This document shows, piece after piece, positions 5,431-63,960 of a DNA stretch of 64,000 bases (positions are counted from its first letter, which is position 1; the number at the start of each line of letters is the position of its first letter). Position numbers and translations under genes: made by a program. Origin of the DNA: an uncultured delta proteobacterium (lineage in GTDB: Bacteria > Myxococcota_A > Polyangia > Fen-1088); NCBI GenBank assembly GCA_963767925.1, contig CAVYGB010000002.1:1472001-1536000 (forward strand), written 5' to 3'. Below the pieces are notes generated by a model. That model saw only the letters and a list, made by a program, of their open reading frames with translations, was not told the DNA's origin and did no database searches.

Positions 5431-6429
5431 TTAGCGACCCATGCCGTTCCAGGTGTAGAGGAGGGCGGCCTCGAGGAGCGCCTGGCCGTCAGCGTTGAGG
5501 TCGTCGTCATTGAGGGCTTCCTCGCTGACGAAGAACCCGACGCGGCGGTTGCGGGCCTCGCGGGTGGCGTTGTTGTCGTCCTCGGCCAGCTCGGCGCCAG
5601 CCTCGTACACGAAGATCGTGGCCTCGTCGTTGTCCCCGGGGTTGGTGGCAAGAATCTCGGCGTCGCCGGCCGGTTCGCCGAAAATGATGTCGTTGTCGTC
5701 GTTGTAGACCTCGACCTCCTCATCGCTGAGATTGCCGAGCGCGGCCGTGATCGGGTGTTTGTCGTCCTGGATCTCGATCTCCTGGTCGTTCTCGACGTCG
5801 CCGTCGTTCTCCTCGACCATCTGCATCTCTTCGAGGACGGCATCGTTCATGACGATGACGGGCTTGTTGCTGAGCAGATACTCGTCCTGCACCTGGTTCT
5901 GGTTTGCGCTGGAGGAGATGATGACGAGACCGTAGCTCTGGCCAGCGACGTTGGAGTCGTCGGCGTCGTCCACGACCACGACGAAGAAGTCCATGTCGTC
6001 CTCGAGGATCTGCTGGAGGACCTCGTCACCGGTGTTCTGGGTGTTGTCCCCGTCACCAACTACGATCAGGGCCTCCTTCATGCCGACCGGAGGCGTCGGG
6101 CGTGAGGGGGGCGGAGGAGCCGGCGGCGCCGCAGGCGGAGCCACCACCGGAGGAGCGGGCGGGGGAGCCGGGGCCGGAGGAGGAGCCGGGGCCGGGGGAG
6201 GAGCTGCCGGAATCGGAGCCGGAGCCGGAGGAGGAGCCGGCGGCGGGTACACGACCGGCGGAGCTACCGGCGATGCGTTAGTACCGCGCGTACCATCGAG
6301 GTTGCCTTGGCACGCCGTGACGAGCCCTGCTGCAAGCATCAGGGCAACAGCGCCCGCCCCATTGAGCGGGAACCGTAGGGAGGAGGTTTTGGATCGCGAA
6401 TTGGGGGCCGGGAGGTGTGTTTTTGCCAC
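5431..6429 (-). CDS. Lipoprotein, Pro-rich linker, highly acidic C-terminal alpha/beta domain (paralog family A)
   Basis: LVTAC lipobox, poly-PAP linker, motifs HPI..L, IFVYEAGAEL, RRVGFF. Confidence 0.85.
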   Translation of the reverse strand: MAKTHLPAPNSRSKTSSLRFPLNGAGAVALMLAAGLVTACQGNLDGTRGTNASPVAPPVVYPPPAPPPAPAPIPAAPPPAPAPPPAPAPPPAPPVVAPPAAPPAPPPPSRPTPPVGMKEALIVVGDGDNTQNTGDEVLQQILEDDMDFFVVVVDDADDSNVAGQSYGLVIISSSANQNQVQDEYLLSNKPVIVMNDAVLEEMQMVEENDGDVENDQEIEIQDDKHPITAALGNLSDEEVEVYNDDNDIIFGEPAGDAEILATNPGDNDEATIFVYEAGAELAEDDNNATREARNRRVGFFVSEEALNDDDLNADGQALLEAALLYTWNGMGR

Positions 6430-6984
6430 AGTACCCTTTCAGTGGCTCGAGGTCCGCGGAGGTGCTCTCAAAATGCATCCGCGGAGCGTCAAGCCACGCA
6501 TTGTTTTTGGTTAGCGCCTATACGTAATCTTTTTCAGATGGTGCACGCAGAGATGACACGAATGGCCAACTCGGCAAGGGCTCCCGCGTTCCCGGGAGGA
6601 TCCGCCACGTCATGGCGGATGGGAACACTGGTAAGTGGCTCGGAGCGCCCTGGGCCGTCACTCGATAGCGGAACCCGGGCCGTCGACCGATTGTCCGTGC
6701 AGTTCAAGGTACTTCTCTTTCTGCCCGGAACCCCGAGGCCTCCTGGCCCTCCTACCCCGGTCAGAGGGAGAAAAGCCAAAAAACCGCGTGGATTCGGCCC
6801 AACGTGGGCGATTCCTGAGCCGTCAGATCCCTACAAGTAACCCTTTCGGGTCCTGAGGGCAAGCGCAAGCAGGCTACTGGCCAGCATCGCCAAGCGAATT
6901 TTCTGCATCCGGGCCCACCGGTTTCCCGTGGCATCGTTCCCACGCGCTTTCGCCCGACGCCTTCTGTTGTTATGGTCTGGCGCG

Positions 6985-8076
6985 ATGTCCGAGCCTCCTC
7001 TGGCTTCTGCGCTGGTCCTCGCCGCCTTGCTCGCGGGCCCCGCCGCCCTCGCCACGCAGAGCGGCCCGCCGGTCGGCGAAGTGGAAGAGCTCATCAACGA
7101 AGCCAACCGCCTCCGCTACAGCGGCGACGACCAGGGGGCCCTCCCCCTGCTGGTCCGCGCCTACCAGATCGACCCCAAGCCTCGCACCGCCGTCCAGCTC
7201 GGCCTCGTCGAGACGGCCCTCGGACGCTGGGCGGACGCCGACCGGCACCTCACCGAGGGGTTGAAGGCGGGTGGAGATCCCTTCATCCAGAAGAACCGCG
7301 ACGTGATCGTCGAGTCGCTGCGGAACGCGAAGCTGAAGGTCGGAAGCCTCGAGATCAATGGGGACCCCCCGGGAGCCGAGGTGCTCGTGAACGGCGTGCC
7401 GGTGGGCACGCTGCCGCTGTCGACCCCGGTGCGGGTGAACGCGGGCACGGCCGACGTCGAGGTTCGTGCTACCGGGTTTCAGGCTCATGCGCGCAGCGTG
7501 GCCGTGCCTGCTCAGCATCTCCAGTCGATCGTGATTCGGCTTGCCCCACTGGTAGTAGCGACGGGGCAGGGCGCCGGCGGCGGCGTCCCCGAGCCGGTGG
7601 GCGGGCCGGATCCGGCTGGCACCGACCTCCTCGAGCGTGAAGCAGCCGCCCGCCCGGAGCGGTCGCGCGCCGCCTGGTGGTGGATCCGCATGGGCGCCAC
7701 GGCGGCGGCCCTCGGGTCGGCGGCCCTGGGCGCCTACGGTTTCCTATCTCACGAGCAGAAGGTCGGCGCGTTCCGGGACAAGACCGATCCAGCGAATCGA
7801 CCGAGATGCTTCGAGCGCGGCAACGCCGTCGTCGACGCTGACGGGAAGCCGGCCGGCTCGGACTGCGTCGCCCTGCGATCGGAGTACGAGCAGGCCCGGA
7901 CAGTCACGATGGCCGGCGCGGTCGGCGCGGGTGTGTCGTCGGCGCTGGCCATCGTGCTGTGGATCGTGCGGCCTGACGACCCCCCGACTCGGGCAGCGGT
8001 GGGCGCTTCGCCGCGGGGCCTGTCGGTTGCTGTCGGTTCAGCCGGTGTCCAGACCGCGTACCGGTTCGCCTTCTGA
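6985..8076 (+). CDS. TPR + PEGA domain protein
   Basis: Signal peptide, TPR-like helices, PEGA motif PPGAEVLVNG..VG.LPL, C-terminal YRFAF. Confidence 0.85.
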   Translation: MSEPPLASALVLAALLAGPAALATQSGPPVGEVEELINEANRLRYSGDDQGALPLLVRAYQIDPKPRTAVQLGLVETALGRWADADRHLTEGLKAGGDPFIQKNRDVIVESLRNAKLKVGSLEINGDPPGAEVLVNGVPVGTLPLSTPVRVNAGTADVEVRATGFQAHARSVAVPAQHLQSIVIRLAPLVVATGQGAGGGVPEPVGGPDPAGTDLLEREAAARPERSRAAWWWIRMGATAAALGSAALGAYGFLSHEQKVGAFRDKTDPANRPRCFERGNAVVDADGKPAGSDCVALRSEYEQARTVTMAGAVGAGVSSALAIVLWIVRPDDPPTRAAVGASPRGLSVAVGSAGVQTAYRFAF

Positions 8077-37022: not shown

Positions 37023-37250
37023 TCCATCATCCCCGCCCCGCCGCCTCATCCCGCCCGCCCCCCCCCATCATCCCCGCCCCGCCGGCCCCCCCCATCATCC
37101 CTGCCCCGCCGGCCCCCCCCATCATCCCTGCCCCGCCGGCCCCCCCCATCATCCCCGCCCCGCCGGCCCCCCCCATCATCCCCGCCCCGCCGGCCCCCCC
37201 CATCATCCCCGCCCCGCCGGCCCCCCATCATCCCCGCCCCGCCGGCCCCC
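37023..37250. repeat. ~27-bp tandem repeat (CCATCATCCCCGCCCCGCCGGCCCCC), about 8 copies
   Basis: Direct inspection. Confidence 0.9.
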
Positions 37251-37257
37251 CTTCATT

Positions 37258-37395
37258 CACCTCTCCCCGCGGTCTGCCGCGGGGAGAGGTCGGCGCGTCT
37301 GCGCGCCGGGTGAGGGGCCTCCGGCGCGGCAACCTCCCCTCACCCTCACCCTCTCCCCACGCCCGCAGACGGCCGCGGGGAGAGGGCAAACAGGC
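37258..37395. repeat. ~135-bp REP-like composite element, copy A
   Basis: Two CCTCTCCCC...GGGGAGAGG hairpins; near-identical to 52722..52853. Confidence 0.85.
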
Positions 37396-37586
37396 GGGGG
37401 GGGGCATGCGCCAGAGGTGAAGATGCCGGAACGGCAGGATTTCGAAGGAGGGGAACCGAAGGCAGGCCTTGCAGTGACGGACGAGGGCGGGCCTACAGGG
37501 TCTGACGCGGGTGGCGTCGGGGGGGGGGGGTGGGTTTGGGCTTTTTCCTTGGCTGCTGGGGGGGCCCAAAAGCAACTACCCACATC

Positions 37587-50974: not shown

Positions 50975-51215
50975 CCGGCGGGGGGGCGCGGGGAGGGGGG
51001 GATGTCCCTGGCGGGGGACGGCCGCTCACGCGCGGCTGGGGGGAACCTCACGGGCCTCGGCGGGGGCTGGCGCTCGGGAGATCGTGGGGGGCCTCGCGGG
51101 GGCGCGCGGCCTCGACTCGCGCCAAGGCAACCGCCGCAGACGGCGGTGCAGGCGCTCCACGCCCCCGCCAGAGACATCCCCCCTCCCGGTGCACTGGGGT
51201 GGCTTACATTTTCTC
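50975..51215 (+). repeat. ~240-bp dispersed element with ~26-bp internal inverted ends, copy 1
   Basis: GGGAGGGGGGGATGTCCCTGGCGGGGG ... CCCCCGCCAGAGACATCCCCCCTCCC; second copy inverted at 55284-55528. Confidence 0.85.
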
Positions 51216-52359: not shown

Positions 52360-52721
52360 AGCCATCGGCCAACAGCCATCGGCCATCAGCCCATCGGCCA
52401 TCGGCCATCAGCTCGGCCATCGGCCATCGGCCATCAGCCCATCGGCCATCGGCCATCAGCCCATCGGCCATCGGCCATCGGCCATCGGCTATCGGCCATC
52501 GGCCATCAGCCCATCGGCCATCGGCCATCGGCCATCGGCCATCGGCCATCAGCCCATCAGCCCATCGGCCATCGGCCATCAGCCCATCGGCCATCGGCCA
52601 TCGGCCATCGGCCATCGGCCATCGGCCCATCAGCCCATCAGCCCATCAGCCCATCAGCCCATCAGCCCATCAGCCCATCAGGCCCATCAGCCCATCAGGC
52701 CCATCAGCCCATCAGGCCCAT
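52360..52721. repeat. 7-9 bp simple tandem repeat (CCATCGG / CCATCAGC / CCATCAGGC)
   Basis: ~360 bp array. Confidence 0.95.
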
Positions 52722-52853
52722 CACCTCTCCCCGCGGTCTGCCGAGGGGAGAGGTCGGCGCGTCTGCGCGCCGGGTGAGGGGCCTCCGGCGTGGCAACCTC
52801 CCCTCACCCTCACCCTCTCCCCACGGAGGACCGCGGGGAGAGGGCAAACAGGC
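52722..52853. repeat. REP-like composite element, copy B
   Basis: Near-identical to 37258..37395; degenerate third copy at ~51283-51340. Confidence 0.85.
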
Positions 52854-55283: not shown

Positions 55284-55528
55284 GGAGAAAATGTGGGCCA
55301 CCCCGGGGCGCGGGGAGGGGGGATGTCTCTGGCGGGGGCGTGGAGCGCCTGCACCGCCGTCTGCGGCGGTTGCCAAGGCGCGAGTCGAGGCCGCGCGCCC
55401 CCGCCAGGCCCCCCACGATCTCCCAGCGCCAGCCCCCGCCGCAGGCCCGTGAGGTTCCCCCCGCCCGCGCGTGAGCGGCCGTCCCCCGCCAGGGACATCC
55501 CCCCCTCCCCGCGCCCCCCCCCCGCCGG
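55284..55528 (-). repeat. ~240-bp dispersed element, copy 2 (inverted)
   Basis: Reverse complement of 50975-51215 with few differences. Confidence 0.85.
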
Positions 55529-58842: not shown

Positions 58843-59697
58843 GTGCCCCTGGTGTCGGTGCTCTGGGTCAGCGCGCTTGGCATCACCGTCGAAGGCAATA
58901 CCAAATGCCCGGAGCCCGGTGAGGTCTCCGCGCGCCTGGAGATCGTCGCGCCGGCCGCCAGCCGCACTCCGGGCAGGGCCGTCTTGATGGAGAGCGAGGG
59001 CTCGCTGCGCGTGCAGCTCCTCCGCCCCAACGGCACCGTTGTTGGCGAGCGGCTGCTCGACACCCGCTACCCGTGCCCCGATCTCGCGGACGCCGCGGCC
59101 CTCGTGCTGGCGAGCTGGCAGGGCGAGTTCGACGCCTCCCCGGTGGAGGCGCCCGCCCTCGAGGCCGCCGGCCGCCCCCTGCCGTCGCCCACCGGCCTCG
59201 CGCCGGAGCTCGGCATCGGCCTGGTCGCCGCCGGTCCCCGCCCGCTGTCGGCCGGCGGGTCGCTGTCGTTCGGGCTCAGCCGGGGTGTCTGGGGCCTCGG
59301 CGTCCGGCTCACCGCCGTCGACTTTCACCGCCAGCCCATCGGCGTCGGAGAAATTAGCTGGAACCGTTCTCCCGTCGCCCTCACCGTGCGGCGCCGGTTC
59401 AAGACCTCGAAGGGCCTCGTCTTCGGGCTCGACGCCGGCATCGCCGCCGCCGTCCTCTTCTCGCGCAGCCAGCGGCTGGAATCGAACCACGCCACCTGGA
59501 CCACCGACTTCGGCCCGACCGCCGGGGTCCAGTTCCTCTTCGACACGGGCGGACCGATCTTGCCGTTTTTGGGTATATCTACCGCCGCCTGGATCCAGCC
59601 CCGCCTGATCCAGGTCACCCCAACCGACACCCGCACCTTGCCTCAGGTGGACTCCTGGCTGGTGCTGGGGCTCTCCTGGCGGCTCGATGCATCCTGA
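58843..59697 (+). CDS. Hypothetical exported/outer-membrane protein
   Basis: N-terminal Cys pair domain, amphipathic strands, LGLSWRL end; upstream of ECF sigma. Confidence 0.7.
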   Translation: MPLVSVLWVSALGITVEGNTKCPEPGEVSARLEIVAPAASRTPGRAVLMESEGSLRVQLLRPNGTVVGERLLDTRYPCPDLADAAALVLASWQGEFDASPVEAPALEAAGRPLPSPTGLAPELGIGLVAAGPRPLSAGGSLSFGLSRGVWGLGVRLTAVDFHRQPIGVGEISWNRSPVALTVRRRFKTSKGLVFGLDAGIAAAVLFSRSQRLESNHATWTTDFGPTAGVQFLFDTGGPILPFLGISTAAWIQPRLIQVTPTDTRTLPQVDSWLVLGLSWRLDAS

Positions 59698-59751
59698 GTG
59701 CAAGGTTTCTGGCAGGCAACGGCACAGACGTGCCAGCCCGTGCGTGCCGAG

Positions 59752-60336
59752 ATGAAAAGATGGAGCGAAGACCAGCCGGAGGGCGTGGTGCCCCCGCTGG
59801 AAGTCGGCGCGCTCTACCGCCAGCACGGCGCGCAGGTGGCGTCCTGGGCCGCCCGCCTGATGGGCCCCGGCACCGACGTGGAAGACGTGGTGCAGGAGGT
59901 CTTCCTGGTGGTGCAGCGCCGCCTGCCGGGCTTCCGCGGCGAGGCCAAGGTGACGACCTGGCTGTACGAGATCACGTTCCGGGTGGCCCAGGGCTGGCGG
60001 CGCCGGCGGCGCTTCCGCTCGTGGCTGGGGCTCGATCAGGCCGATCCCGCCGGGGACCTCGTGTCGGAGCGGGCCAACCCCTTGCAGGAGCTGGAGGTCC
60101 GGCAGGCCACCGAGACGGTATACGCCGTGCTGGACCGGTTGCGCGAGCGCGACCGCACCATCCTGGTCCTCTTCGAGATCGAGAAACTATCCGGGGAGGA
60201 GATCGCTGCCCTCGAGCGCACCTCTCTCAATAACGTATGGTCCCGAATCCACCGTGCGCGGGCCCGCTTCCTCCGCGCATACGGTCTGCTCGAAGGGGAG
60301 CGCCGACGTTCGCAGAAGTTGAGGACGGCGCCATGA
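59752..60336 (+). CDS. ECF sigma-70 factor
   Basis: EDVVQEVFL, TTWLYEI, EEIA......NVWSRIHRAR. Confidence 0.92.
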   Translation: MKRWSEDQPEGVVPPLEVGALYRQHGAQVASWAARLMGPGTDVEDVVQEVFLVVQRRLPGFRGEAKVTTWLYEITFRVAQGWRRRRRFRSWLGLDQADPAGDLVSERANPLQELEVRQATETVYAVLDRLRERDRTILVLFEIEKLSGEEIAALERTSLNNVWSRIHRARARFLRAYGLLEGERRRSQKLRTAP

Positions 60337-61511
60337 GCGATCAAGAACGCCTCCGCCCCTGGGCGGAGAGAGAGAGACCGGTGGGCTTCGGCCTGCAGCA
60401 AGAGGACGAGGCGGCGGCGCTGTTCCGGCGGGTGGACGTGGCGGTGCGCTTCGACCCGCAGCGGGTGGCGCTGGCGGTGCTGGCCCGGCGCTCGGCCGGG
60501 AGCACGGTCCGCATGCGCTTTGCCGTGGTGGGCGCGGCGGCGGCGGTGCTGCTCGGCAGCGCGGGCGCCATCGCGGCGGTCCGGCGCATGCCCAGGCTCG
60601 GCCTGTGGCTGCTGACCGTATCGTCCTCGCATCCGCCGCGGGCCCGGTCGGAGGACCTGCCCCCGCCCGAGCGGGCCCTGCCGCCCGCGCCGCCCGAGTC
60701 GATGCCGGCCATCGTGGTCGAGCCGCCCCCGGTCGCGCCGGTGCTGGCCAGCGAGACACCCGCCCGCCGCCACGCCGGCGTCCACAAGCGGACCCGCCGC
60801 CTGGCGATGCACCGGCAGCCGGGCAGCGCCCGCGCCAGTCGCGCGCTCGAGGCGGTCGCCGAGCCGCCGGACGTCGAGACCTTCGCCCTGGCGCCCGCCG
60901 CCGGGACCGGCGCGCCCGCGACGCCGGATCTCTCGGCGCTGGGCTTGCTGGGCCTGCCGCCGGCATCGCCCGGGACCGGATCGGAGCCGGCCGCGACCGC
61001 GCCGGCCGCCGCGCCCGAGTCGCAGCTCGCCCGGGAGACCCGCCTGCTCAACCAGGCGTATTCGCAGCTTCGCAGCGACGACGACCCTGCCGCCGCGCTC
61101 GACTCGCTCGACGAGTACCTCAACGTTCATCCGCTGGGCCTCCTGCGCAAGGAGGCGAGCAGCGCCCGGGTCGAGGCGCTGATCAAGCTGCGGCGCCGGA
61201 ACGACGCGCTGGCGGTCCTGCGCAGCTTCCCCTTCGGAGAGGGGGCGCGCGACGCCGAGCTGCGGGTCCTGCGCGGCGAGCTCACGGCGGCCCACGACTG
61301 CGAGAGCGCGATCCGGGACTTCGTGGCGGTGTCGGACAAGGTGGCACCCCCTCCGATCCTCGACCGGGCGCTGTATGGCCGGGCCGCCTGTGAGGCACGT
61401 CTCGGTCAGCGGGCGCAGGCAGCGGCCAGCTTTCGCGCCTACCTGCGCCAGTTCCCCGACGGAAATTTTGCGGCCGAAGCGAAACGCCAGGTCGGAGAAA
61501 CCGCAAAATAA
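60333..61511 (+). CDS. Putative anti-sigma factor, TM + Pro-rich linker + TPR
   Basis: ATGA overlap with sigma, single TM, YL..HP.G.L..E, YLRQFPDG.FA.EA. Confidence 0.8.
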   Translation: MSDQERLRPWAERERPVGFGLQQEDEAAALFRRVDVAVRFDPQRVALAVLARRSAGSTVRMRFAVVGAAAAVLLGSAGAIAAVRRMPRLGLWLLTVSSSHPPRARSEDLPPPERALPPAPPESMPAIVVEPPPVAPVLASETPARRHAGVHKRTRRLAMHRQPGSARASRALEAVAEPPDVETFALAPAAGTGAPATPDLSALGLLGLPPASPGTGSEPAATAPAAAPESQLARETRLLNQAYSQLRSDDDPAAALDSLDEYLNVHPLGLLRKEASSARVEALIKLRRRNDALAVLRSFPFGEGARDAELRVLRGELTAAHDCESAIRDFVAVSDKVAPPPILDRALYGRAACEARLGQRAQAAASFRAYLRQFPDGNFAAEAKRQVGETAK

Positions 61512-61621
61512 ACTGCAAGGTCACTCCGGGCTGGGAGCACGAATCAGCACGGAGGGGCCTCATGAAACATTGGTTCCGGGATACGCCGCCCTAGGGTCAT
61601 GGTTGGGCGGGTTCCTGGAAC

Positions 61622-61784
61622 CGACTCGGAGGGATTGGATCGGAAACCGGCGCCGGGGTTGCCACAGTACCAGCCTCGGATGCGGTGCAGGTGGTGAGCT
61701 TAACCCGGGAGGTGAGCATCACCACCTGCGCCGCCCGCCGGGGGCTTTCCGGTCCAATCCCTCGAGGTCTCTCCCCCACTTTTT
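61622..61784 (+). ncRNA. Structured intergenic RNA, Pxr-like candidate
   Basis: 18-bp closing stem, two internal hairpins, all wobbles G-U on the + strand, 3' T5 tract. Confidence 0.65.
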
Positions 61785-61979
61785 GCGTGCCTGTCGCTTC
61801 CCTCGTTTCGACGAGGTGACTGACCTTCTTCCAGCGCGGGCCGCCTCCTCGTCTGCTTCGACGTGATTGACGCCCCACCACTCGGGGGTTCCAGGGCCTG
61901 CTGGCCGGACGGCGTCACCGTCGCGGACGAGGGTTTTCCCCGGGCCGTAGGGCGTATCCAGGTCGGATAAGATGCCGGT

Positions 61980-63755
61980 GTGACACCGGTAGCGCCCACC
62001 CTGCTGTACTTGCTGCTGGCGCAGCCCGAAGTCGGCGGCGCCCCGCCTCCCCTCCCCCCGGGGTCCGAATCCGGAGCGCCGGTTCCGGACGGGCCGGCCC
62101 CGCTGGCGGCCGAGGCGAGCGCGGGCGACGCCTTCGCCGTCGACCTCGCGCGCGGGCGGCCCCGGCTGAGCGGCGGCGCCCGGCGCTTCACCGCCGCCGG
62201 GCCCGATCGGGGCACGCTCGCGGTCCGCCTGCGGGGCAGCCTCACCGGCGTGCCGGGCAAGTGGGGCGAGGTGCTCTTCGATCTGCGCGGCACCCCCATC
62301 GCCCAGGTGCCCTGGAACAACCGCACCCAGGTCGAGGCCCAGGTGCGCGTCTCGCCCGCCTTCGTCGGCGACGGCAAGCGCAACTGGTACCGGGCCCACA
62401 GGGCGCGGCTGTTCGTGGTCGACCTGCGCGGGCGGCGCCTGTACCTACCCCACACCGCCATCGTCGACCGGCCCCGGTCCAGCGACGGCTGGCTCGTCCT
62501 GCGCGGACAGCCCACCACCGACGTCCCCATCCCGCTCGGGCGGATCGACCGCGGCATCAACCTGAGCCGCATCACCGGCCTGGGCCTCAACGTCGAGGCC
62601 TTCAACCGCGAGGGCGAGCCGGTGGCCGGGTTCGTCGAGCTGCGCAACCTGCGCGTCACCTTCGGCCCCGCCGTCCCGGTCCGCACCCTCGGCGTGCAGC
62701 CCGCCATCGTCGCCGGGGAGGCCGAGCGCAGCGCCGGGATGATGGCCCGCCTGAGCCAGCGCTGCGGCTTGCGCCCGGGCCAGATGGCGGTCGGCGTGAA
62801 CCTGGCCTGGCCCACCGCCGAGTCCCCGGACGGCGAGCCGATGCAGCTCTACGGTCGCATCCTCGACGGCGGCACCCCCTGGTACAACCGGCTTTGGGAC
62901 GTGGGCGAGGAGGCGGTGGCCATCTCGGTGCGCAACGACTTCCGCGAGATCCGCGAGACCTTCGGCCCGGGGGCGGTGGTGCGGCTGTGGCTGTTCTCCG
63001 ACCTGCGCAGCGGCCTGGCCCTCGACGACGCCGGCGACCCGGTGGCGGTGACCGAGCGGGCCCGCCAGAACATGCACGGCCTGCTGCGCATGGCCGCCGA
63101 GGAGCAGGTGGTGCTGCTGCCGGTGCTGCTCGACTTCCAGATGGCCGACGGTGTGGTGCGCACCGGCCCCGACGGCGCCTGGCAGGTGAGCGAGCGCCCC
63201 GAGCTGATCATCGATCCGGCCCGCCGGGCCAAGCTGGTCAAGGCGCTGGAGGACTTCGTGCGGCTGTTCGCCGGCGACCCGGCCGTCCTGGCCTGGGACG
63301 TGATGAACGAGCCCGAGAACGCCGCCGGGGTTGTCACCCCCGCCCACTTCGCCCAGGTGCAGGCCTTCGTCTACGAGCTTGTCGAGGCGGTCCACCGCGC
63401 CGGCGACCTGGCCACCGTGGGCCACCGCAACGCCGTCGACCCGCGCGACCACTTCCGGGGGCGGGTGGCCAGCGACCTCGGCCAGGCCCACTACTACCCG
63501 CTCGTCGACAGCCGCCCCAACCCGACCCCCTTCGGCCTGCCGATGGCCAACATCTTCGGCCTGTTGCCCGCCGGCTGGGGCGAGCTGCAGGTCCGCCCCG
63601 GAGGCGTCGCCGCCCAGCTCGCCACCGCCCAGCGCGCTGGCCACCGCCTCTTCCTGTTCTGGAGCTGGCGCGGCCACCAGGAGACGGGCGATGGCTACGC
63701 CGTCCGCCCCCACGCCGCCGAGATCCGCCGGGCCGTCGCTGCGCTCCGCCGCTGA
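61980..63755 (+). CDS. GH-A clan (GH5-like) glycoside hydrolase with N-terminal beta-sandwich-like domain
   Basis: VRLWLF.D, AWDVMNEPE acid/base, HYYP, GE nucleophile region, LFWSW. Confidence 0.8.
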   Translation: MTPVAPTLLYLLLAQPEVGGAPPPLPPGSESGAPVPDGPAPLAAEASAGDAFAVDLARGRPRLSGGARRFTAAGPDRGTLAVRLRGSLTGVPGKWGEVLFDLRGTPIAQVPWNNRTQVEAQVRVSPAFVGDGKRNWYRAHRARLFVVDLRGRRLYLPHTAIVDRPRSSDGWLVLRGQPTTDVPIPLGRIDRGINLSRITGLGLNVEAFNREGEPVAGFVELRNLRVTFGPAVPVRTLGVQPAIVAGEAERSAGMMARLSQRCGLRPGQMAVGVNLAWPTAESPDGEPMQLYGRILDGGTPWYNRLWDVGEEAVAISVRNDFREIRETFGPGAVVRLWLFSDLRSGLALDDAGDPVAVTERARQNMHGLLRMAAEEQVVLLPVLLDFQMADGVVRTGPDGAWQVSERPELIIDPARRAKLVKALEDFVRLFAGDPAVLAWDVMNEPENAAGVVTPAHFAQVQAFVYELVEAVHRAGDLATVGHRNAVDPRDHFRGRVASDLGQAHYYPLVDSRPNPTPFGLPMANIFGLLPAGWGELQVRPGGVAAQLATAQRAGHRLFLFWSWRGHQETGDGYAVRPHAAEIRRAVAALRR

Positions 63756-63886: not shown

Positions 63887-63960
63887 GCGCCCATAGCTCA
63901 ATTGGATAGAGCAGCGGCCTTCTAAGCCGCTGGCTGGGGGTTCGATTCCCTCTGGGCGCG
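63887..63960 (+). tRNA. tRNA-Arg(TCT), CCA not encoded
   Basis: GCGCCCA/TGGGCGC acceptor stem, anticodon arm GCGGC-CTTCTAA-GCCGC, GGTTCGATTCC T-arm. Confidence 0.97.

Follow-up and report, generated by a model that had tools for sequence, protein, structure and literature searches.

Does the strongly folded intergenic sequence near the end of a 64,000-nt stretch of contig CAVYGB010000002.1, from an uncultured delta proteobacterium, encode a relative of the myxobacterial RNA Pxr or an RNA of another kind? The stretch (the window; 71% G+C) belongs to a 9.34-Mb genome of 13 contigs that is 83.8% complete (G000), and the sequence lies directly behind the genes of a sigma factor of the extracytoplasmic function (ECF) type and a putative anti-sigma factor. 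The original prediction had described it as a three-way-junction RNA of ~160 nt at 61622-61784, either a divergent Pxr homologue or the member of a new family of small RNAs (sRNAs). We found a larger single-copy structure on the + strand, shared with one genome of the same genus (G001, the congener), whose conserved loops are complementary to the start region of a lipoprotein mRNA encoded in the same window. That it is a functional structured RNA of some kind is highly probable. The whole chain that we propose, in which a single-copy + strand structured sRNA is made with the ECF sigma factor and pairs with and represses the lipoprotein mRNA, is a model held with moderate confidence, its chances being about even.

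The + strand of 61622-61790 folded with a minimum free energy (MFE) of -104.4 kcal/mol against a mean of -70.1 kcal/mol for its shuffles (z = -7.46), and none of 200 shuffles folded as well. The minus strand of the same interval reached -89.3 kcal/mol (z = -4.25); it folds less well because the wobble pairs turn into A-C mismatches. Folding both strands thus bore out the earlier argument that the G-U pairs point to a + strand RNA. The stems described before (61629-61646 with 61746-61763, and 61647-61652 with 61736-61741, the latter of 6 bp) and the hairpins at 61653-61679 and 61682-61734 were all recovered at these positions in the MFE fold, and the run of five Ts that had been noted behind them is present. 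A repeat finder, which is independent of the fold, returned 61629-61646 and 61746-61763 as an 18-nt inverted repeat that is 94% complementary.

The extent of ~160 nt proposed at first holds for the junction part and not for the full RNA, since conserved and paired sequence spans about 61550-61775, which makes an RNA of ~225 nt. The longer interval 61546-61790 folded at -152.8 kcal/mol into five helices, P1, HP0, P2, HP1 and HP2 (Table 1). No canonical terminator was found by a scan of 61400-62100. A small open reading frame (ORF) behind GGAGG-N6-ATG (61563) was considered and rejected, as its product would have 10 aa in the window as against 24 aa in the congener, with a 2-nt indel between the two.

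Table 1. Features of the RNA, of its proposed target and of the neighbouring operon (window coordinates)
Feature	Position	Strand	Description
P1, 5' strand	61551-61561	+	GGAGGGGCCUC; pairs with 61764-61774; sequesters Shine-Dalgarno-like GGAGG (MFE fold of 61546-61790)
HP0	61570-61624	+	20-bp hairpin; 13-nt loop UAGGGUCAUGGUU at 61592-61604
P2, 5' strand	61629-61652	+	18 + 6 bp; partner 61736-61763
HP1	61653-61679	+	9-bp hairpin; loop CCACAGUAC; conserved 13-mer UUGCCACAGUACC (61659-61671) spans the loop; proposed seed 1
HP2	61682-61734	+	Long hairpin; apex CCGGGAGGUG (61705-61714), proposed seed 2
P2 and P1, 3' strands	61736-61774	+	Contiguous, P2 at 61736-61763 and P1 at 61764-61774 (MFE folds)
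T5 run	61780-61784	+	5 nt past end of P1; possible 3' end, non-canonical as terminator
Predicted lipoprotein gene	5431-6429	-	GTG start 6429-6427; signal peptide; lipobox ..LVTAC; no Pfam family; proposed target
Target site 1	6423-6435	-	mRNA GGUACUGUGGCAA; perfect complement of the HP1 13-mer
Target site 2	6408-6417	-	mRNA CACCUCCCGG (+13 to +22); perfect 10-mer complement of HP2 apex 61705-61714; 10 nt downstream of site 1
284-aa ORF	58843-59697		No Pfam family; directly upstream of sigma gene, the 54-nt gap between them holding motif copy 1
Motif copy 1	59699-59728	+	TGCAAGGT-N16-CACAGA; 2 nt past stop of 284-aa ORF, 24 nt before sigma ATG; candidate autoregulated ECF promoter
ECF sigma factor gene	59752-60336	+	Sigma70_r2 (PF04542, E 1.3e-12), Sigma70_r4_2 (PF08281, E 4.7e-12); ATG at 59752 inferred from sequence
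Putative anti-sigma factor gene	60237-61511	+	C-terminal TPR domain (TPR_6, E 3.4e-6; Pfam)
Motif copy 2	61514-61543	+	TGCAAGGT-N16-CACGAA; 3 nt past anti-sigma stop; candidate RNA promoter

The element is present once in its genome. BLAST with 61547-61785 gave one match in G000, the query itself, and a covariance model likewise gave one. The same search would have caught a repetitive extragenic palindrome (REP) or a miniature inverted-repeat transposable element (MITE), because two real dispersed families in the window gave 14-18 and 135-146 matches. The many dispersed copies that had been named as the mark of such a repeat were not found, and with its single copy the element is not a REP- or MITE-type repeat. 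As for these two families, one is a structured repeat of ~130-165 nt (37240-37405 and 52720-52850; arms CCTCTCCCCGCGG.. and ..CCGCGGGGAGAGG) with 135-146 blastn matches (E ≤ 1e-5) in the 9.34-Mb genome, which mark it as a MITE- or REP-like family. The other is a repeat of ~200 nt with 14-18 genome matches, whose two window copies (50990-51190 and 55300-55520) are mutually inverted and 95-96% identical, with terminal inverted arms GGGGGGATGTC[CT]CTGGCGGGGG lying 144 nt apart.

Beyond its own genome the RNA was found in the congener, so that its reach is two metagenome-assembled genomes (MAGs) of one uncultured genus. BLAST in 41 relatives returned the congener only, plus a 27-nt chance match in G010, and an exact motif pattern matched twice among 401 genomes of the class, in G000 and G001. 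In public genome contigs the pattern matched the congener and, by chance, an unrelated MAG, inside a gene for methionyl-tRNA synthetase; in public metagenome contigs it gave only three A+T-rich chance matches. A covariance model (R1) found nothing new at 28 loci downstream of paralogous anti-sigma genes. A further model (R2), run on 89 genomes of the family, returned G000, G001 and one match in G291. This last match was rejected as an assembly artefact: it has no HP1, its score is the same on the two strands, and it is a perfect palindrome located where a contig ends. That contig (L077, G291:C143, 1440-1629) ends in a perfect palindrome of ~150 nt after a GGCGGCGCGATC-type tandem repeat, and the end looks like an assembly fold-back. 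The HP1 13-mer had eight matches outside the genus in the 89 family genomes; these lay in coding sequence (for example of a Cys-rich repeat protein) and were no commoner than those of a reversed control. A retron msr-msd RNA, whose closing stem, small hairpin and long hairpin give it a superficially similar topology, was rejected as well: the neighbouring ORFs of either species encode no reverse-transcriptase domain, and the downstream genes differ.

The intergenic regions of the two genomes can be aligned from the anti-sigma stop codon onward, and 165 of 257 aligned columns are identical. Folded alone by MFE, the congener's sequence formed the same five helices, with stems that differ and loops that are conserved. 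Its P1 consists of CGGAGGC paired with GCCUCCG and appeared in the MFE fold with a pair probability of 0.94. Its HP0 loop, UUGGGUCAUGGUU, is identical to the window loop at 12 of 13 positions and sits on a different stem sequence, and its HP1 13-mer, UUGUCACAGUACC, is likewise identical at 12 of 13 positions, on a stem that is different and longer. When the junction domain was aligned by model fitting, 87.5% of the cells paired, and 9 of the 56 pairs were changed on both sides, compared with 0-5 in slid controls and 0 of 500 shuffles; in P2 both sides are changed in 8 of 24 pairs. Covariation among homologues had been proposed as a check on the RNA, and these double-sided changes speak for it, though they come from one congener only. 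Because two sequences were compared in an alignment fitted to the structure, the covariation is supportive rather than conclusive.

The conserved HP1 loop led to a single counterpart elsewhere in the genome. The complement of the HP1 13-mer has two perfect sites in the whole of G000, one being the RNA gene itself and the other the minus strand of 6423-6435; by our estimate from base composition, chance alone would give ~0.12 extra perfect matches per genome. This second site covers the last bases of a Shine-Dalgarno-like GAAAGGG, then the spacer, the GTG start and the four bases after it, codon 2 included, of a predicted lipoprotein gene. Perfect sites number exactly two in the congener as well, and the second is again found where the orthologous lipoprotein gene (E 1.3e-52, 45% identity) begins; both species retain the reading frame that the GTG opens. 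Around the start the two mRNAs share a block of 47 identical positions out of 50, and they agree at 55 of 107 positions upstream of it and at 68 of 110 downstream. A conserved seed complementary to the start region of an envelope-protein mRNA was thus found, in silico, in both genomes.

The second proposed site, which faces the HP2 apex, changed between the species in a manner that kept the pairing: in the congener CUCCUCC pairs with GGAGGAG at the same mRNA position, after an A-U to U-A exchange in which the mRNA carries U for the window's A and the apex A for the window's U. In the window there are further complementary runs of 9 and 8 nt between the RNA and the lipoprotein mRNA. When random pieces of the genome were compared with the sRNA, 1 of 6000 combined a run of at least 13 with a run of at least 10. 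The two-block duplex has an energy of -39.8 kcal/mol in the window and -56.3 kcal/mol in the congener, and RNAduplex applied to the whole molecules produced meaningless long G+C duplexes. Duplex energy is a poor discriminator in a G+C-rich genome, and the argument therefore rests on the uniqueness of the site, its position at the start codon and the conservation of both partners. The fallback of the original prediction, a new sRNA family, is accordingly supported by the single copy, the strand asymmetry, the compensatory changes, and conserved loops with a conserved complementary site in an mRNA.

Two further observations concern the target locus. Between the lipoprotein gene (minus strand) and the gene of a PEGA/TPR protein (6928-8076, + strand) lies an unusually A+T-rich intergenic region of ~500 nt (6440-6930). 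The 5' untranslated region (UTR) of the lipoprotein mRNA may form a small hairpin, GCCAC..GUGGC, with the GUG start in the stem and the Shine-Dalgarno sequence in the loop.

The match between the two loci extends beyond the seed. The sRNA segment 61627-61671, which comprises the 5' strand of P2 and the 5' arm and loop of HP1, is collinearly similar to the + strand of 6381-6435, that is, to the antisense of the first ~50 nt of the lipoprotein gene; 3 of 1000 random pieces scored as high, and in the congener none of 1000 did. This similarity shows common descent of both segments and is what would favor a feature of the DNA, in which TTGCCACAGTACC and CCGGGAGGTG are sites of one DNA-binding protein at both loci, or in which the whole RNA locus has no function and is a part of the lipoprotein gene's 5' end that was duplicated in inverted orientation. 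Such a reading is improbable. It does not fit the strand-specific wobble pairs, which put ~15 kcal/mol in favor of a + strand RNA, nor stems that covary between the species, and HP0, HP2 and P1 are conserved and have no counterpart at the lipoprotein locus. A neutral relic, moreover, should have decayed between genomes in which the lipoprotein is 45% identical and the flanks agree at about half of their positions.

For an sRNA that pairs with the lipoprotein mRNA, the collinearity suggests that its seed-bearing part goes back to a copy of the target's 5' end, duplicated in inverted orientation. More tentatively, and with less confidence than in the pairing itself, we consider that the sRNA gene may have originated when the first ~50 nt of its target were copied in inverted orientation, and may then have landed behind the ECF operon, captured a copy of the sigma promoter and gained extra hairpins, to become a trans-encoded antisense RNA that would clamp the start region of the target by two or three separate loop or arm contacts.

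The setting of the RNA suggests how it might be produced. Of the ECF and anti-sigma genes that had been proposed upstream, the first has the Pfam domains Sigma70_r2 and Sigma70_r4_2, and the second, a putative anti-sigma gene, has TPR_6; the latter gene probably starts near 60330, overlapping the sigma stop. In the congener the anti-sigma orthologue occupies the same position relative to the RNA, with a C-terminal domain that is 69% identical. Downstream, the window has a gene for a 591-aa protein with no Pfam family, and the congener a convergent DNA-alkylation-repair-like gene. Because the anti-sigma gene precedes the RNA in both species while the downstream genes differ, the RNA goes with the sigma/anti-sigma operon and does not form a leader for the gene behind it. 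The TPR-containing C-terminal domain of the anti-sigma factor (61020-61508) is also widespread in its own right, occurring in 86 of the 89 family genomes, mostly in several copies each and with up to 11 matches, and this paralogy suggests that one type of ECF sigma/anti-sigma module has expanded specifically in this lineage.

A candidate promoter motif stands in front of both the sigma gene and the RNA. Copy 2 is kept in the congener as TGCAAGGT-N15-CACGGA. The pattern TGCAAGGT.{14,17}CAC[AG][AG]A has three matches on the two strands of G000, of which two flank this operon in the same orientation, and a reversed control gave one match. An 8-mer and a 4-mer at matching spacing were shared in 102 of 20000 shuffles. 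A start ~7 nt past the second element of copy 2 would fall at about 61547-61551, the foot of P1. The motif was not present upstream of four paralogous sigma genes of the congener, as expected if each ECF sigma factor has its own specificity, and a relaxed form, TGCAAGG-N15-18-CAC, had 43 mostly random sites. Outside the window, in G000 (C1:397746, C2:686563, C4:138308 and C9:31689), at least four near-identical copies of another sequence were noted, each followed by an ORF of 99-162 aa (MRAILGR..), which probably represent a small mobile element.

The same setting could be read more simply, as a structured 3' UTR, terminator or stabilizer of the sigma/anti-sigma operon that has no role in trans, with the lipoprotein match as the leftover of an old inverted duplication or a product of chance. 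The RNA starts 40 nt past the anti-sigma stop, and in both species it is this gene that precedes it, with different genes behind it; its long G+C-rich helices followed by a T-run would suit a 3' end structure; the promoter is a candidate, and no sigma70-type promoter was found by a scan. We nevertheless regard this explanation as unlikely. A terminator or stabilizer needs helices and not loops of 12-13 nt that are conserved on diverging stems, and it leaves unexplained three observations: the unique loop complement on the Shine-Dalgarno-to-start region in both genomes, the mRNA block that is identical at 47 of 50 positions within flanks of ~50-60% identity, and the intermolecular A-U to U-A exchange. 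An origin from a 3' UTR and a function as an sRNA are compatible with each other.

A number of observations weigh against the chain from ECF sigma factor to lipoprotein mRNA. On the side of the target, the complementarity in the congener is inherited and not independent; the summed run length was reached by 15 of 6000 random pieces, and 37 of 3000 random pieces bound HP1 as well in RNAduplex. Seeds 1 and 2 lie partly within short stem segments that need to open. The equally conserved HP0 loop gave no target common to G000 and G001: its one-mismatch complements number four in G000 (two at apparent start codons) and two in the congener, and the genes are not orthologous. The covariation comes from two sequences of one genus and reflects a single divergence event, in an alignment fitted to the structure. 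On the side of the promoter, the motif was defined post hoc, after both sites had been seen, and the 8-mer alone was shared in 2199 of 20000 shuffles; it is unlike the AAC..CGT pattern that PMC6061681 describes for ECF promoters of M. xanthus. The orthologue of the sigma gene was not found in the congener's assembly, where the best match is 48% identical, and motif copy 1 has no counterpart there to compare. Public sequencing records list no RNA run as containing the stretch. Three soil DNA runs yielded short contigs of low depth, and one guessed RNA run yielded a single low-depth contig covering 61551-61734; the latter differs from the window at 61701 (T>C, which turns a U-G into a C-G pair) and 61629 (G>C) and is unusable as evidence of transcription.

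To these points is added the lower stem of HP2, all 15 of whose 15 base pairs are invariant between the two genomes, a feature that the proposed model leaves unexplained. This is more than structure alone requires, and it would be accounted for by an RNA that binds a protein or serves as its decoy, for example through this stem or the GGAGG-rich apex, with mRNA pairing secondary or absent. Paired 5' and 3' ends occur in many stable protein-bound RNAs, and the HP0 loop for which no mRNA target was identified would also fit. Against such a role, no candidate partner gene is linked to the RNA in both species, and the conserved complementary start region of the lipoprotein gene is unaccounted for; we consider it improbable as the main function.

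The identification with Pxr, an RNA that blocks fruiting-body development and is processed from a longer into a shorter form, fared worst. Pxr is described in PMC5684412 and PMC5568312 as an RNA of ~111 nt with three tandem stem-loops, of which SL3 carries a conserved 8-bp segment and a U-tail; according to the same sources it has a sigma54 promoter and lies between the gene of a sigma54 response regulator (pxrR/nla19) and a NADH dehydrogenase gene. Against Rfam 15 the whole window gave only a tRNA (63887-63960) at gathering thresholds, the presence of a Pxr model in that release being unconfirmed, and a 521-base region searched at E ≤ 10 gave only sub-threshold noise from miRNA families and Scr4115. 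No Rfam accession for Pxr was found in the literature. The comparison was therefore made by local alignment of three oligonucleotides given in PMC5568312 (positions 13-33, the SL1 probe target and positions 48-111) to 61546-61790. Among 500 pieces drawn at random from this genome, a score at least as high was reached by 68, 196 and 487, respectively. The SL1 probe target is absent from G000 at up to three mismatches; it is also absent from all 151 genomes of a phylum-level sample, which held no positive control and is uninformative on the distribution of Pxr.

What could still be said for a divergent sigma54-driven Pxr homologue that gates fruiting-body development is that both are multi-hairpin RNAs of Myxococcota, that the conserved block of the congener contains TGG-N9-TGC, and that a 10-nt stretch, TGCAGGTGGT, is similar to TGAAGGTGGT within Pxr positions 13-33. 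The sigma54 promoter on which this reading drew proved weak. The GG-N10-GG element is present (GG at 61605-06 and 61617-18) but is a trivial pattern in DNA of this base composition. A sigma54-like block reads TGGTTG-N5-GTGC in the congener and TGGTTG-N5-GTTC in the window, where the -12 GC is missing, and a 2-nt indel separates the species there. The block read earlier as a possible promoter, GGGTCATGGTTGGGC, is the conserved loop of the covarying hairpin HP0, inside a longer conserved RNA. Size and topology differ from those of Pxr, and no sigma54 regulator gene is adjacent. With neither the sequence, the architecture nor the synteny of Pxr found here, a Pxr homologue is very improbable, and the element gives no evidence for Pxr outside Cystobacterineae.

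We therefore return to the sRNA that acts on the lipoprotein mRNA, for which we infer transcription, promoter, repression and the direction of repression as follows. Release of the ECF sigma factor from its anti-sigma factor would let the RNA accumulate. It would be transcribed either from motif copy 2, which repeats the promoter motif in front of the sigma gene itself, or by read-through of the operon; should the motif prove to be no promoter, the RNA would remain coupled to the sigma factor by read-through. The HP1 loop (UUGCCACAGUACC) would then pair with the lipoprotein mRNA, whose gene lies 55 kb away, across its Shine-Dalgarno-to-GUG region, and the HP2 apex (CCGGGAGGUG) with the site 10 nt further downstream, while part of the P2/HP1 arm might lengthen the duplex. 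Ribosome loading would be blocked, and cleavage of the double strand perhaps invited, so that lipoprotein synthesis would fall while the ECF sigma factor is active. The RNA would presumably act without Hfq. No Hfq was found in G000, a genome that is 83.8% complete, and this fits seeds that are presented in loops.

To our knowledge, very few regulatory RNAs are known in Myxococcota. Pxr is at the center of the sRNA literature that we found for the phylum, and its direct targets are described as still debated in PMC11928866. The RNA presented here is a candidate with a specific, testable partner, namely one lipoprotein mRNA with two pairing sites and a plausible ECF input, and it can be tested even though its host is uncultured. 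Its sequence and fold match no described family; the regulatory logic is one already known. If confirmed, an envelope sigma factor that shuts off a lipoprotein through an sRNA would have evolved independently outside enterobacteria and without Hfq, as a self-contained ECF sigma-sRNA-lipoprotein circuit in Myxococcota. If the duplication origin is also true, the locus might document how a bacterial sRNA arose from its own target, a parallel to plant microRNA genes that arise from theirs.

Compared with Pxr of M. xanthus and other Cystobacterineae, the RNA is likewise a multi-hairpin, intergenic RNA of Myxococcota that adjoins the gene of a presumed transcriptional regulator, and its host resembles M. 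xanthus, which is reported to be without hfq in PMC5684412, in that Hfq was not found. Unlike Pxr, it is ~225 nt long with paired ends and two junctions, stands behind an ECF sigma/anti-sigma pair and has no sequence similarity to Pxr above background.

Closer in its proposed logic are the sigmaE-dependent RNAs of Escherichia coli (MicL, together with RybB and MicA), in which an ECF sigma factor would correspond to the one here, an sRNA to this RNA, and start-region pairing on an envelope lipoprotein or porin mRNA to the predicted duplex. MicL is Hfq-dependent. The sequences and folds are unrelated, and MicL lies inside the cutC coding sequence, whereas this RNA lies directly behind the sigma/anti-sigma operon and carries its seeds in hairpin loops. 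MicL depends on sigmaE and represses the Lpp lipoprotein (PMC4102768); for this RNA, dependence on the ECF sigma factor is presumed from its position and the motif. GsrN of Caulobacter offers a second analogy: this sRNA is controlled by an alternative stress sigma factor of the ECF type, the arrangement proposed here. GsrN uses an exposed loop for target recognition. It belongs to another phylum, differs in sequence and targets and is not encoded at the sigma operon. It depends on sigmaT/EcfG and acts post-transcriptionally (10.1101/344820, PMC5869019).

A third comparison joins the mode of contact to the putative origin of the RNA. It is encoded in trans, 55 kb from its proposed target, and in this it is unlike both antisense RNAs of the kissing type and plant microRNA genes; its duplication origin is suggested by the similarity of the two segments. 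Among the antisense RNAs of plasmids and chromosomes there are some that make loop-loop "kissing" contacts, and there are plant microRNA genes that arose when their targets were duplicated in inverted orientation. The RNA described here resembles them in its loop-presented seeds and in its multi-block complementarity of ~45-55 nt, which runs collinearly with the antisense sequence of the target at its 5' end.

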